DNA of 64,000 nt from Carcharhinus longimanus (Eukaryota), in the NCBI GenBank assembly GCA_030264375.1, contig JASCQW010000061.1, positions 96,309,518 through 96,373,517 on the forward strand, in the 5' to 3' direction. Positions within the stretch are counted from its first letter, which is position 1. Each line of letters opens with the position of its first letter. Both the position numbers and the translations under genes were made by a program. Shown here piece by piece: positions 13,689 to 64,000 of this stretch. Below the pieces are notes generated by a model. It was not told where the DNA came from. It was given only the letters and a program-made list of their open reading frames with translations, and searched no databases.

Positions 13689-13823
13689 TGTAATGACTTC
13701 AATCAGACCAACAGATTAGCCTATTGGAATATGAACTCCCTGACTGGCCCATCAATTGGATCCTTAATCAGAGAGTTCATACTGCAATAGGCCAACTTCA
13801 ATGGCCTGACTGAAGTCATTACA
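13689..13823. mobile_element. 135-bp palindromic element (TGTAATG...CATTACA)
   Basis: About 55-bp imperfect inverted arms. Flanks agatc / agttc. Homologous to the element starting at 63884. Confidence 0.7.
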
Positions 13824-14299
13824 AGTTCACGCCTTCAAACTGTGGAAACTGGTAAAGAAACAAAGCTAACGCCGTAACGTTTAATTGATAACAATGATAC
13901 ATTTAAAGGATAGCCAAGGCTTGTAAGCGTTCCATAATTCCATATCCTTGGAATTAACTGTGAGATTTATGTACAGCCACAGAATTGCTATCCTAACGTG
14001 TACCTTGTTCGAAGAATGTCTTCTCTTAGGGTTAGGGATTCTCACTATACGAAATTGAGCAATTGGCTTAGCATGATTGCCTGGTATTAGACACGAAAGC
14101 ATGATATCTCACCATACTGAGTTCCTGCCCGAGTCCAAGACTACAGACATCTTCTTCGTAAGCGGCAGACATAGATGCACCTCATAAAAAAGAATTTGGA
14201 AATATCCGAAAATGATAGGGGGACCCCATGGAAAATTTCAGGCACAGTAAGAAGTCTGACAACACCAGGTTCAAGTCCAACCGATTTATCTGGTAGTAA

Positions 14300-14339
14300 A
14301 CTCACAAGCTTTCGAGGTTTACCTCTTCGTCAGGTGAAT
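14300..14339 (-). ncRNA. Minimal type I hammerhead ribozyme motif (Penelope type)
   Basis: Minus strand reads AUUCAC-CUGACGA-A-GAGG(UAAA)CCUC-GAAA-GC-UU-GUGAGU: stem I, core boxes, stem II and a self-complementary AGCU stem III. Activity is untested. Confidence 0.65.
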
Positions 14340-14463
14340 GAATGAATGAGTCATTCACCTGACAAAGAGGTAAACCTCGAAAGCTTGTGAATTTACTACC
14401 AAATAAATCGGTTGGACTTAAACCTGGTGTTGTCAGACTTCTTACTGTGTTTACCCCAGTCCA

Positions 14464-14707
14464 GCTCGACAGACTGGTGGGACTGATTGTGGACAAGTCC
14501 CCAGGACTGGATGGAATGCATCCGAGGGTTCTGAAAGAAANNNNNNNNNNNNNNNNNNNNNNNNNNNNNNNNNNNNNNNNNNNNNNNNNNNNNNNNNNNN
14601 NNNNNNNNNNNNNNNNNNNNNNNNNNNNNNNNNNNNNNNNCCATGATCTTATTGAATGGCAGGGCAGGCTTGAAGGGCTAGATGGCCTACTCCTGCTCCT
14701 ATTTCTT
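14464..14707 (+). mobile_element. CR1 LINE (gapped) nested in the Penelope-like tail
   Basis: Encodes DKSPGLDGMHPRVLKE (CR1 ORF2) before the N-gap. CR1 3' end gatggcctactcctgctcctatttctt follows the gap. Confidence 0.85.
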
Positions 14708-31560: not shown

Positions 31561-31578
31561 ACTCGGACAGTCACTTAC

Positions 31579-31690
31579 CAATATCGAGGACTCTCTGTTT
31601 GGCAGTGTGCTGTCGAGAATGCCAGTATTTCCAATATCTCAGTTGCTCATCACGGTTCTTATCTTCACTGAATACCACCATTATTACACT
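31579..31690 (-). CDS. GRHL2: GRHL2 coding exon (equivalent to exon 7), 112 nt
   Basis: ccccag|AGT...ATTG|gtaagt. Translates [37 protein letters not shown](A). Confidence 0.97.
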
Positions 31691-33455: not shown

Positions 33456-33648
33456 GAAAAGCAACATGTCATTTAGGCATGACTGCAGCTACTCTTCAGT
33501 TTCACTGCTGGAAGGCTTCCCAGCTTATCGGTTTCACTGACGAAGCACTCCCTGCCTTGTTCTCACCTAGCTGACCCCACACTGATCAGGAAATCCATGC
33601 ACAGGCTGTAAATATCAGCCGGCCAGCTTAAATCCTCAGGTAATTGGA

Positions 33649-33974
33649 TACAGTAGGAAGTCTTATAACACCAGGTTAAAGTTCAACAGGGTTATTTGGA
33701 ATCACGAGCTTTCGGAGTGCTGTTCGTTCATCAGGTGAGTCACTCTCTGGGTGTGACAGTTCCACAACAACAGGGTGAAAACTAGAATTTCAAGGTTGTA
33801 CCTTTGTCTCACACACAAGCACAATTTTACCTATTGCCCCCAAGAGTGACTCACCTGATGAAGGAGCAGTGCTCCAAAAGCTCATAATTCCAAATAAATT
33901 TGTTGAACTTTAATCTGGTGTTGTGAGATTTCTCACTGCGTCCACCCTAGTCCAACACCAGCATTTCCACATTA
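33649..33974 (+). mobile_element. Fold-back Penelope-like element with a ~100-bp foreign spacer
   Basis: Arms 33651-33746 and 33843-33938 (16 mismatches in 96), decayed CTGATGA...GAAA motifs, tail tccaacaccagcatttccacat, and 12-bp TSD caggtaattgga at 33637-33648 and 33975-33986. Confidence 0.82.
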
Positions 33975-33994
33975 CAGGTAATTGGAGATATACA

Positions 33995-37225: not shown

Positions 37226-37382
37226 CCTAACTTTGCTGATCGGATGGCGAAGGCATTTGTTGGCTCCTGTTTCCCTGAGTGTTATAGAATAAAACTGTCC
37301 TTTGTTCAGATAGGTCATCGGCCCTTCCCCCTGCTTTTGACGTAAAGACTTTGTGGCTTCCAACATGTACTGGAACGAATCT
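37226..37382 (-). CDS. GRHL2: GRHL2 coding exon (equivalent to exon 6), 157 nt, start of CP2/Grh DNA-binding domain
   Basis: ctccag|A...AGG|gtaagc. Translates [52 protein letters not shown]. Confidence 0.97.
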
Positions 37383-37861
37383 CTGGAGTAAAGGAAGAAT
37401 TAATGATGGGAGAATGCACAGTTCAAGGAAACATGCTAAGGGTCTGGTAAGTGTCAATGTTCATACTTTGGAGGTAGACTTAAAAATTTGCACAAATACT
37501 GGTTGGATCTAATGTCTGTTCAGAAGGTGTGGCACTGCAGTTGCTTATCACAGAGATCTTCTTTACACTCTCCTAAATGACATGAATAATTTTATTTTCT
37601 ATAAAATGCAGTACATTAAATTAGCAGCACCAATCTAAAACAAACCAGCTTCATAAAATACCATGATTGGTTAAGACATACCAACAGCAGCAAAACTAGT
37701 TGAAGGGCCTGGGAGGGCTGAAGCTTTGTGTCCAACTGATTGTCTCAATTGCAATGGAACAGTTTTGAGAAGCCAGGAGGGCTCCTGGAAAGGTGTCCAG
37801 ATATTCCTCCCTCGGTTAAGGAGTCGAGAGACTGGTTAAAAACAGCAAACAGCCATAGCAC

Positions 37862-38632: not shown

Positions 38633-41600
38633 CTGCAGTTAAAGGAAGCAAAAGGCATGGGATTAGTAGTATATTCAGTAAGTGGTTGTAGATGACAGAG
38701 CTAAAGATTTTAAAAGTGAATCATTAGGAACGTTTAGGCTGCCCCTTTCCCCAGTTGCCAAATGAACTTACAGCTCAGCAACCCAACTTGTGATGGAAAG
38801 TACAAAATGACAAAGAAAAATTCTCTGTCATACATTGTATCTCGCCATCATATTCCAGTCACAATAAAACAGAGACATATTGCAGTGGCTGCAGGTTCAG
38901 TTGGAAGGAATTGTGTAGCACCTTATTTATGTCGGGTAATCTGTTACAGACCCCTATCATTTTGACTTTTCTGATGTGAAAAGGATCTTGTACACACAAG
39001 GATTTGCAGCACAGTTTCTGATGTTTAGCTGTTGGTCTGACTTCAGCCTAACAGTTCACCCATTAGTAAACTATAGATTTACTCTAGGGTGACACAAGGT
39101 GAAAATATTACACGTTACCAATACTGAACGATACTTACAGACGTACATATAATACTTGTAATGCTATTTTCCAATGACTTTAAAAAACTTGTTTAAGATG
39201 TGAGCAATTTATGTTGCTCCCTCTCCATGACCTCTGATTCACAGCTTAAAAAATTGTGCTCTGCTTCCCTGATTGTTGTTCAATATTTGTTCAAGATGCA
39301 AGTATTTTTAAAATCTTCCTTCCTTCCTTCCAAAAGTGTCTTATTTATACGATCATGAGAATTCCCCTCCCACACACACACTTACTTCCCACAGCTATGT
39401 AGTCCCTGTATAAGAAATTACAGGCTTGGCAACCCAAAATAGTGATCCCCAACTGTTGGGTTCCAACCCAATGTCACGTAAGTGAGTGATTATTCATCAC
39501 AATCCAAGCCTAGCTGATTGATGCTGGCTGAAGTTTGCAAGATCAGCATCAAAGCACTTCATTAACATCACCTCTCTGTCCCTGGTGCAAACATCCATAC
39601 ATGTCCGAAACAAAGTAAGACACATCCCAAAGAAAAATCCATCATCTTCAAATGTTTTAACTTATTGATCCAAGACATTGAAAAAAGTTAAGTTTTCATT
39701 TTTGATTATTTTCTCATGCATCACATTGTCATTTTTTAAAAAAATGGATGGAATAGCACTCTCTGGGTGTGACAGTTCTGCAACAACAGGATGAAAGCTG
39801 GAATTCCCAGGGTGAATCTTTGTCTCCCACACAAGTACAATTTCCCCTGTTGCCCCCTCGAGTATCTGGGCAACTCTCTAATACACAATATGTAGGAACA
39901 ACTTCGAGCCTTACTTCCCACACAACGTGGACCCAAGTGAAGCTTTCAGAAGCAGGAAATGAGGTGGCTGGGGACACTTAATTGTGTTGGGGGGGGGTGG
40001 GGGGTCAAATGTCAGCTTCTTAATGGTGGGATGGAAGATGGGGCATGAAGTTAGAAGCAGATTAAATCCCAGAACACGGCTACCAAACAGCAAGTGACAG
40101 GAACCTATTTGTAATGTGTTAGCATGTCAGGCATACACATTAAAACACAGTCTCCAGATTAAATTGCATCTTTGCAAGTTGAATCTACTATCGCAAACAT
40201 GTGCCTTCAGATTTCAACTAGTTAACGGTGATGGGCAGCAGGCAAAAAAGTCTTCCTAATAGATTTGAAGTTCATCAAAGCCACATTTCTAATTTTGTTG
40301 GGCCAGGGGAGAGGAGGCAGAGCTCAGGTAATGTTGTCCAGGGAAGTCAGGGGATGACTGCCTGTGTCAGGGACAGTGGTGGCTATCCAGGGAGATCAGG
40401 GTGTGGCTGTCAGTGGCAAGGAGGGTGAGGTCACAGCAACTTAAGGGGGATCATGGGGGACAGAGGGAGGTATCTGGAGGATAAAGGGAAGGTAATCTGT
40501 GGCCAAGACAGCTCAAGTATGATAGAGTGAGATCAAGGTGATGGAGTTGAGGTTGGGTGAGGACAGGTGAAGGGTAGAGAGAGGGCCTGGATACTGGGAA
40601 CAGCTTAATGTTGATAGTGGGGGCCAGCTTTAGGTTGATCAAGAGTGATCGAGGGTCATGGAAGGCAGTGCCTGGGTGATATGGGAGGTTGCAGGGTGAT
40701 GCCATACTGCTCCAGGGATCCAAAGGTGCCAGGTGGGGAGGGGTTCAATTCTAATTCTTCCTCTCAGACTGGCAGAACAATGCTGTTGGCTTTACAGAGA
40801 GTGGATGCCTGTCCGAGTGCTCTTCAATCATAGCGCCCGTACCTTTGACCCCTGAGGTAAAAGCGGTGTTAGTGTTTTCCGGCCCCACCACACAATTGGC
40901 TGTGCCCCTGGAATGTACATTGCTAATTGGCTGGTCACTGCATGTGACCAGCTGACTGGCCTGAGTCCCCTTCTTTTCAGGAATACTCAACATTGGAAAA
41001 AGGTTCTGCCAACATCAGCGGAGGTGGCCTGTGTGTCAGGGAGAAAGCTCCTTTCAGCTAGGATTAACATTAAATGACTAACTTTGTGCACATGCTTATT
41101 GACCATTACAGAATTTAGTAACTTCCTTCAGCTCATGCCAGAAGTATAATTTTTAATGCCACTTTTGGATCGAATTGACTAAACAAAGAGGTTATTTCAC
41201 TGATTCCATGGGTTGGTTTGGGGGATCCTTGCTGATCCCATTATTTTCAGGCTCTACCACCCTGTTGTCATCCAACCATGCCAGTGAAAAGCTGCCCCAA
41301 AGAGCAGATTCCCCTCCTCCCTTCCCCAAAGCTGTACGGTCATGTCATTATTACAAGCCATACACATCCTGATGGTTAACTGAGGTTTCCTGACACTCTG
41401 ACCCATAAATAAAGAACTGGTAGACTCCTCCATGAGAGGAGAGTAAGAAATGAGAGCCACGCCTGACCTGATTAACTGGGTGGAATTGACAGGTGAGAGT
41501 TATTCACGTCACTTCCTGGAGTCCAAAGCTGTCACTCAGAGTTTGTATTTCCTGAGGCTTGCTCATCAATCCCTCCACTCGCTGCTTCCCTCACACTCAT

Positions 41601-49724: not shown

Positions 49725-49890
49725 ATCTGTGGAGAGAGAAACAGTTAACATTTTGGGTCCAATGTGACTTGTCTTCAGTTCTGAAGAAGAGTCACATTGG
49801 ACTCAAAACATTAACTGTTTCTCTCTCCACAGATGCTGCCAGTCCTGCTGAATTTACACCAATTGCTGTTTTTAGTTCAGATTTCCAGTT
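49725..49890 (+). mobile_element. Second Penelope-like fold-back terminus with a decayed hammerhead motif
   Basis: Inverted arms 49725-49778 and 49781-49834. AGTT-CTGAAGA-A-GAGTC..GACTC-AAAA-CA-TT-AACT is followed by the ctctctccacagatgctgcc tail. Confidence 0.7.
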
Positions 49891-62932: not shown

Positions 62933-63344
62933 GATGTGGAGATGCTGGTGTTGGACTGGGGAATCACAGTAAGAAGTCAACCAGGTTAAAGTCCAACAGG
63001 TTTATCTGGTTGCACATGCTTCCAGAGTGTTGGTCCTTCTTCAGGTGAGTGAGGATTTGTGTTCACAAACAGACACGAACTCAATTTACAAGATAACGTT
63101 TGGAATGCGAGTCTTAACAGGTAATCAAAACAGGTTAAAGAGATGTGTATTGTCTCCAGCCAGGACAATTAGTGACGGCCTCAACCGGGATTTTGGGTTC
63201 ATGTCACACTATCTGTAACCCCTACAACTTGCCTGGGTTTGCAAAATCTCTGACAGCCTGTGCTACCAAATCTCCGACAGTCTGAAAGCTTGTGCTACCA
63301 AATAAACCTGTTGGACTTTTACCTAGTGTTGTGAGACTTCTCAC
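62933..63344 (-). mobile_element. Penelope-like element with inverted ends and an ORF C-terminal remnant
   Basis: Same arms as the 14245 and 33649 copies, with the tail on the left. 63174-63218 (+) encodes DGLNRDFGFMSHYL*, resembling the C-terminus of Penelope GIY-YIG proteins. Imperfect TSD agagtttgtcat / agagtttgtgtcat. Confidence 0.75.
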
Positions 63345-63883
63345 AGAGTTTGTGTCATCAGGCCTGCCCCATCATTGAACTGGGCAAACTCACTCAGTTG
63401 CATAATTAATGAGGTTGGGGCAAGAATTCTTCCCCTTTTCCATCAGCCTTTGTAGCAGGAAACACTCCATATTCCTGGCCTTCCCAGGGAATTGTTCCCT
63501 AGAAGCAAAGGTCACCGATGAAGCAGCTAAGGATGGCTACAAAAACCTTAGCCTTACCTTTTACACTGATGTGCTGGGCTCCACCATCATTGAGGATGGG
63601 GATGTTTGAAGAACCTCGTGCTCTTATTAGATGTTTAATTATCACCTTGATTCACAACTGGTCGTGGAGGACAACAGAACTTTGATTTGATCTTCTGATT
63701 GCAGTGTCACTTAACTCTGACTATGGCATGCTAGTTCTGCTGTTTCACACTTATACAACTCTGTGTTGTAGCTTCAGCAAGCACCTCATTTTTAGGTATA
63801 TCAGGTGCTACTCCATTCATTATTTCCTGCAATTCTCATTGAATCTGGTTGTACCCCCTAACTCGATGGTAATAGTGCGAGGT

Positions 63884-64000
63884 TGTAATGACTTCAATCA
63901 GGCCATTGAGGTTGGCCTACTGGAATATGAACTTCCTGATTAAGGAGGCAATTGATTGGCCAATCAGGGAGTCTCTTCCTGGTATTCAACCGGAAGTGTC
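63884..64000 (+). mobile_element. Start of an LTR-like element running off the window
   Basis: Begins TGTAATG, interrupts an older LINE, contains CCAAT motifs, and shares ~88 nt with the 13689 palindrome. LTR identity is inferred only. Confidence 0.45.

Follow-up and report, generated by a model that had tools for sequence, protein, structure and literature searches.

Insertions of EN+ Penelope-like elements carry a one-sided tail of 30-40 bp (PMC8557442, PMC11167929). In vitro, an anole Penelope-like protein cuts and extends both strands of the target, and reverse transcription starts at two positions that bound the tail (PMC11167929). How these elements complete insertion has not yet been validated, according to the same study. 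In Adineta vaga, 'a few' unrelated sequences lie between solo pLTRs with target-site duplications (TSDs), and the Pen1 spacers are ascribed to capture of host DNA (PMC3846280). Templated insertions are also described for L1, where they are below 250 bp and typically come from within 15 bp of the site (22 cases; bioRxiv 10.1101/2024.08.27.596794). Three further L1 cases have a nearby template (PMC11702581). At double-strand breaks, one third of the associated insertions have their source at most 2 kb from the break, and the insertions shift with resection (bioRxiv 2022.09.30.509517). Additional background is found in PMC13174262 and PMC4209133.

The window analyzed here is a stretch of 64,000 nt from Carcharhinus longimanus (GCA_030264375.1, contig JASCQW010000061.1, positions 96,309,518-96,373,517). 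Its features are listed in Table 1. Sequence comparison indicates that the unit at 33649-33974 is composed of two Penelope-like 3' ends, arranged head to head within one 12-bp target duplication. As predicted, a single 12-bp TSD brackets the whole unit. Between the two arms there are 17 differences in 91 ungapped positions, or 16 in 90 when they are aligned locally. The unit resembles EN+ Penelope-like insertions in having an inverted 5'-truncated copy beside a pLTR, a one-sided tail of 34 nt, within the described 30-40 bp, and a TSD round the entire unit. It had been called ribozyme-bearing. The hammerhead motif is indeed recognizable by eye, but it is decayed in both arms, and an Rfam scan gave no match at the gathering score. 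The unit is not a new mobile unit and has not been mobilized again, and no function is indicated for the copy at 33649.

Table 1. Positions of the insertion, its donor, neighboring host exons and sibling copies in the 64,000-nt window.
Feature	Position	Strand	Evidence or remark
TSD, left copy, 12 bp	33637..33648	+	Read from sequence
Inverted Penelope-like pLTR arm, tail-less	33649..33740	-	Stops at 5' edge of hammerhead motif; stem II broken
Host DNA copied from 39757-39857, orientation unchanged	33741..33841	+	Alignment; genome search; runs X10, X13
Junction bases aagagtg	33842..33848	+	4 of 7 match donor; 6 mirror first captured bases
Sense pLTR arm with decayed minimal hammerhead	33849..33940	+	CTGATGA, stem II, GAAA changed to AAAA; read by eye against PMC4209133
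One-sided tail, 34 nt	33941..33974	+	Missing from left arm
TSD, right copy	33975..33986	+	Read from sequence
Donor, single-copy intronic host DNA	39757..39863	+	No element remnant; continuous with flanks in related organisms
CP2-domain exon between element and donor	37229..37384	-	Pfam PF04516, E 1e-17
Next CP2-domain exon, downstream of element in transcription	31574..31690	-	Pfam PF04516, E 4e-12
Sibling two-arm copy, younger	14243..14464	.	9-nt loop; hammerhead fold intact-looking (z -2.2)
Sibling two-arm copy, middle of element sequence	62934..63344	-	Alignment

The spacer between the arms was predicted to be a copy of host DNA about 6 kb away. BLASTN within the window aligned 33741-33847 to 39757-39863 over 107 nt, ungapped and on the same strand (84.1% identity, E 4e-28). 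Ten of the 17 differences are transitions. The firm match stops at 33841, giving a captured copy of 101-107 bp. No Penelope remnant is present at the donor site, where the best matches across 38.5-41 kb reach 19 bits. In runs from related organisms, the donor is crossed by long orthologous contigs (X6, X9 and X14) or by two overlapping pieces (X13), and its flanks are present as loose ends in X10, X13, X14 and X18. Run X10 contains the whole insertion with its spacer (2 differences in 141), and X13 contains the left joint. Runs X14 and X18 showed the donor only. An empty orthologous site was absent from the 15 joints listed of 4,792 in these runs. Since the donor is free of element remnants and continuous with its flanks, and the spacer stops exactly at the arms, 39757 is almost certainly the source and the spacer the copy.

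It is extremely unlikely that the spacer is instead a dispersed or low-copy repeat, or that the copy at 39757 is the younger one. Repeats do account for 16 of the 82 middles in the family set described below, one of which maps to three unlinked copies, and the genome search passes over very common words. Yet the same search returned at least 40 matches for each of two other, repeat-derived middles, and exactly two loci for the spacer at 33741. The donor also has unique continuous flanks in related organisms. Of the outcomes that the original prediction had set against itself, neither a dispersed repeat nor a younger copy at 39757 was borne out. Donor orthologues differ from the spacer at 9 of 99 positions in X13 and 8 of 100 in X18, and the donors of this genome and of X10 at 15 of 101. 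These counts point to uneven substitution rates among lineages at 39757-39857.

The host gene is of the CP2/grainyhead type, as identified by its Pfam CP2 domain, and lies on the minus strand; it is probably GRHL2, as named in the original prediction. Element and donor were correctly placed in different introns of one gene, with one CP2 exon separating them. A search with short peptide motifs for further exons found just the two CP2 exons. Other short inverted repeats in the window are located at 13689-13823 (74% self-match), which also matches 63883-63972, and at 49725-49834 (89% self-match).

Related loci elsewhere in the genome place the arms in an element family. On one strand of locus L194, an RT frame is followed by sequence of the 63050 type and then by an arm, and the frame in L195 matches Pfam RVT_1 (E 7e-8). 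This order and this match identify the arms as the pLTR of an RT-bearing Penelope-like element. A GIY-YIG-like stretch, with YIGET and a Cys/His pattern, was seen by eye in the broken frames of L192, L193 and L195, and Pfam gave no match for it. L192 has a CX4CxxC linker ahead of this putative endonuclease, which fits the CX2-5CxxC motif of the Neptune/Nematis type (defined in PMC8557442). The family is probably Neptune-type. One apparent long-ORF copy was discarded as mostly N.

Two sibling copies in the window conform to the original prediction. The one at 14342 has its 9-nt loop at about 14341-14349, and the middle of the one at 63050 derives from the element itself. Genome-wide, strict two-arm places number 564 with a gap of 0-49 and 292 with a gap of 50-200, and reversed-pattern controls gave none. 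Plain centers often read GTGAGTCAC; most fall close to where hammerhead stem I begins on its 5' side, a region favored by the search patterns. The middles of L073, L075, L018 and L022 come from the element, either from its RT coding region or from sequence just past the tail; these would represent jumps within the element RNA. Two other classes were considered for the unit. A non-LTR retrozyme (as defined in bioRxiv 10.64898/2026.07.22.740005) was rejected on the basis that the arms are inverted and decayed, whereas retrozyme units are direct tandem repeats whose type I hammerheads are intact. A mobile MITE-like fold-back cassette was rejected because the spacer is at two loci only and because the distant sites from which L032, L036 and L057 drew their middles have no arm.

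The original prediction proposed that such capture is general. We picked by hand 100 places with foreign-looking middles from lists of exact-match patterns (60 and 40), and took 10 kb for each. Requiring two arms removed 6 of the 60 and 12 of the 40, leaving 82 loci, which are biased to copies breaking near the hammerhead. L074 failed the automatic arm test through Ns and was retained by eye. A uniform test divided the 82 middles into 59 that are non-repeat and at least 30 nt long, 16 that are repeat-derived, and 7 that are short or element-derived. A donor of at least 40 bits was found in the locus's own 10 kb, within 5 kb, for 27 of the 59 non-repeat middles, compared to 3 of 4,779 cross-locus comparisons. 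Capture of local DNA is therefore borne out as a recurrent feature of the family. For middles of at least 50 nt, a donor lies in the own 10 kb in 25 of 45. Among repeat-derived middles, the own locus gave the best match of the 82 in 7 of 16. The aligned captured pieces in the family are 22-232 nt long. Foreign middles of at least 50 nt occupy 6 of the first 50 places in one of the pattern lists (two local, two distant, two unassigned), and a rough hand estimate puts such middles at about 4% of the 856 strict places.

For the other 32 of these 59 middles, the 5 kb on either side yielded no donor. Extending 20 loci without an assigned donor to 15 kb on each side yielded none at 5-15 kb. The weak best matches of L035, L077, L078, L082 and L084 all fall within 1.6 kb. 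Seven such middles were searched for genome-wide. Two have single distant donors, one is a low-copy repeat, two are dispersed repeats, one has a partial match and one has no match. The two single distant donors are on other contigs, and one of these donors falls within a long open frame. L032:4957-5043 copies 68 nt of L091:1501-1568 (C1 compared to C154), which lies in a long GC-rich open frame; a Pfam search with the 220-aa frame of L091 gave no match. The captured sense in L032 is that expected of an mRNA template. The 260-nt middle at L079:4871-5130 is an inverted repeat (75% self-match) with 79% identity to two other loci, and is possibly a small DNA transposon inside the junction. The 278-nt middle at L063:4862-5139 lies between two tail-bearing arms and is the one of the seven for which the genome search gave no second match. 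The automatic TSD finder was too noisy for TSD counts across loci.

The donors are close to the insertion sites. For 37 events including the window copy, the gap between site and donor has a median of 1,031 bp, with 10-90% of the values at 318-2,118 bp; L175, L153, L179 and L078 were too weak for this set. The enrichment of donors predicted within about 50 kb was thus found at a far tighter range. Gaps below 300 bp are seen in just 2 of the 37 events, and the closest firm donor lies at 87 bp. When the near flanks of the 82 loci were checked for exact matches, no firm donor was found adjoining the site, and the match near L173 is ambiguous, in a low-complexity repeat. A log-uniform distribution of gaps between 20 bp and 15 kb was rejected (p 1e-4), and an exponential one was not (p 0.24). 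The gap of the window copy, 5,781 bp, is the largest of the 37 and an outlier beyond the usual range. Counted in non-repeat bases, the median gap is 637 for the first 24 events, which indicates that later insertions inflate the gaps. In the window, only 18% of the gap is repeat-masked, so later insertions explain little of its 5.8 kb.

The donors show no preferred side or orientation. In the first 24 events, they are divided 12/12 by side and 14/10 by orientation, and donor polarity has no link to the side of the tail (12 compared to 11). The middles of L050, L053, L074 and L181 are pieces from two or three places, and those of L074 come from both sides of the site. Pieces of both orientations occur in two middles. 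In the three informative two-donor middles, L050, L074 and L181, each piece reads towards the break from the adjacent arm.

Divergence was used to date the capture. Pooled over 35 events, the arms differ from each other at 310 of 2843 positions (10.9%) and the spacers from their donors at 340 of 3230 (10.5%; Wilcoxon p 0.64). L031 and L054 were left out, as their arms are too short. The two divergences are correlated in rank (Spearman 0.47, p 0.004), a correlation that is gone when CpG-prone sites are removed (rho 0.12, p 0.49), the pooled values remaining close at 9.5% and 9.2%. In the window copy, spacer and donor differ by 15.9% and the arms by 17.8%. One exception was found, L076, whose spacer is more diverged than its arms (p 0.007). 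Because the two divergences agree, capture likely dates to the time of insertion, as originally suggested.

The same values bear on the idea of late patching, in which the tip of the palindrome broke well after the insertion event and was repaired from nearby DNA. Perfect palindromes are fragile, which speaks for this idea, and single-locus divergences are noisy at 30-250 sites. The pooled agreement, however, speaks against it. None of the 35 loci has a significantly younger patch, and the youngest patches sit in the youngest arms (arm-arm 1.5% and spacer-donor 2.5% in L074, 4.4% and 4.0% in L180). These comparisons already largely refute late patching for the family, and we consider it very unlikely.

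The next question is whether the template was RNA or DNA. The reverse transcriptase could have jumped from the element RNA to host RNA, which would be nascent pre-mRNA for local donors, as the original prediction had suggested, and other transcripts for distant ones. Several observations agree with this. The middles derived from the element trace to other portions of its RNA, and joints with filler suit template jumping as described for R2 (PMC11371274). The orientation of the window copy fits, with the gene on the minus strand. One distant donor lies in a long open frame, oriented as if the tail-less arm had copied an mRNA; the distant donors would be well explained by an RNA template. The window and L032 led to the prediction that host RNA is copied by the tail-less arm, with base skew standing in for the transcript strand. 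In the central 10 kb, the skew of the first set, window included, leaned towards the prediction (15 of 23 signs, t about 2.2 by hand), as did that of the new set (9 of 13). The pre-registered skew test was nevertheless null, with p 0.35 for the 10 firm new events and p 0.15 for all 13. A second pre-registered test on new flanks was also null (13 of 27 signs, p 0.23); it was planned with 10 kb on both sides, which 10 of the 27 events had, the other 17 having 7 kb on one side. The nascent pre-mRNA template is thus unsupported by both tests, in which the proxy itself is weak (flank compared to center, r 0.25, p 0.2). A model with the donor upstream in transcription was rejected, side agreeing with skew in 14 of 24 and 2 of 13 events.

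The distribution of donors also argues against host RNA. Donors are equally frequent to either side of the site and become sparse beyond 2-3 kb, though introns here are longer. The two middles of mixed orientation would require jumps by both arms. The even, short-range spread suits DNA near the break better than RNA, and we regard copying from host RNA as unlikely.

The joints between arms and spacers were scored at 52 places. Filler is present in 35 (median 4 nt), and 5 have 0-1 shared bases. At least two shared bases are found in the other 12, some of which are alignment artefacts; the scoring is noisy at 10% divergence. The side of microhomology showed no pattern with donor class.

The junction bases of the window copy had been read as a sign of fold-back synthesis into the captured piece. 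In such a scheme, one cDNA copies the element and then the donor, and folds back so that the first arm serves as template for the second. Snap-back synthesis is known for R2 (PMC11371274), and self-priming has been proposed for Penelope (PMC3846280). The window copy mirrors six non-element bases, the ends of its spacer form a 10-of-11 inverted repeat, and donor orthologues in four runs are without the junction bases. Mirroring of foreign bases is, however, seen in just 2 of 29 other captures (5 and 2 nt). In addition, GAGTCACTC is also present at the center of uncaptured copies (C1:36214006), so that five of the six mirrored bases can be element-made. The arm lengths provide further evidence. 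A copy cannot outrun its template, yet among 15 unselected loci, L004, L010, L011 and L016 have a tail-less arm that clearly extends further at the center, and L003 and L006 a tail arm that does. The tail-less arm also cannot supply the tail. Rare mirroring, GAGTCACTC at uncaptured centers and the arm lengths rule out snap-back as a general route, and synthesis of the window copy from a single folded cDNA is quite improbable. A local fold-back in the window copy alone is possible, since the junction bases are missing from the four donor orthologues. The bases 33842-33848 may accordingly be filler plus element-made bases, or the product of such a local fold-back.

The structure of the unit and of its relatives suggests how the patch arose. 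The 101-107-bp patch, whose donor lies at a distance of 5.8 kb, was probably templated by DNA where two cDNAs met, and likely arose during the sealing of the insertion. The protein would first cut both strands and prime a cDNA at each end, starting at two RNA positions on either side of the tail. Two separately primed cDNAs are favored by the both-strand cleavage and the two RT starts of the anole protein. Synthesis of both cDNAs would then stop prematurely, in many cases at the edge of the hammerhead, so that a double-strand break with two single-stranded cDNA ends remains. In a few percent of copies, this join contains 30-280 nt of DNA that can come from both sides and both strands, mostly from 0.3-2 kb away, and the captured middle is occasionally made of two or three pieces. 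In the window copy, one of the cDNA ends likely copied a short stretch of nearby chromosomal DNA and only then met the other cDNA. The donor range would correspond to the range of end resection, and copying would start with little or no homology. End joining would then close the gap and leave a few filler bases.

The polymerase that copied the donor may be the element's own reverse transcriptase or a host repair polymerase. We lean slightly to the former, as most joints are without microhomology. We infer the break, its resection and the polymerase from the products of insertion. A more specific version is that insertion proceeds via a long-lived resected break, and that a telomerase-like RT jumps without homology onto single strands released by resection. 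Reading towards the break in three of three two-donor middles has a chance of 1 in 8, compared to the opposite order, and fits released strands, not the 3' overhang, as template. This version is unlikely. If it is true, the thousands of two-arm copies are a fossil ruler of germline resection, at about 1 kb.

The feature found here is real and recurrent, with its template and polymerase inferred. The capture had been put forward as not described. We found no paper mapping junction spacers of Penelope-like elements to local donors in a literature search whose reach left most subscription journals outside, and this part of the claim stands. Host sequence between solo pLTRs with TSDs is, however, known from A. 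vaga (PMC3846280). The unit shares with EN+ Penelope-like insertions the inverted 5'-truncated copy, the one-sided tail and the TSD (PMC8557442, PMC3846280, PMC11167929), and it has a decayed motif that resembles their minimal hammerhead. The A. vaga captures differ in that their source is unmapped in the part of that report considered here, which also says nothing about local bias, distance range, frequency or timing. Gene capture in A. vaga is also different, as DNA is moved to a new chromosomal place between direct pLTRs. At the R2 5' junction (PMC11371274), the 3' end of the cDNA similarly primes on itself, nearby DNA or other RNA before joining. However, R2 has one cDNA and a fixed site, its extra templates are mostly U6 RNA, and it lacks a two-arm structure with a donor at kilobase range.

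L1 twin priming and class 1 double-strand-break insertions are further parallels for the patch. In L1 twin priming, two cDNAs are made from both cut ends and end-joined, and host DNA of <250 bp is copied in. The window patch, at 101-107 bp, is within this size. Unlike the L1 templates, typically within 15 bp, the nearest firm donor in the family is at 87 bp, the median is at 1 kb and the window donor is at 5.8 kb. Furthermore, the two arms here are copies of one and the same element end, with the patch located at the inversion junction. The class 1 insertions (Min et al., bioRxiv 10.1101/2022.09.30.509517) are similar in having donors within about 2 kb, several donors in one insertion and many joints without microhomology. 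Donors in the family are likewise concentrated within about 2 kb of the presumed break (10-90% at 318-2,118 bp), with the window copy as an outlier. Dependence on MRE11/BLM, RAD51 and DNA-PK is a further trait of the class 1 insertions. They differ in that the breaks were engineered, in human cell lines, and in that their donors lie close to another break and favor the transcribed side. In the shark family, donor and acceptor belong to the same natural germline site, and a transcription bias was not detected.

A frequent and datable patch at the junction of the arms points to two cDNA ends waiting at an open break. It provides figures that can be tested: a reach of about 1 kb, both strands, little homology and a few percent of copies. 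Capture of this kind is also a steady supply of short local duplications in such genomes. What the analysis adds to the known systems is the family-level picture, with its reach of about 1 kb on both sides and strands, its insertion-time age, its filler joints and its multi-donor cases.
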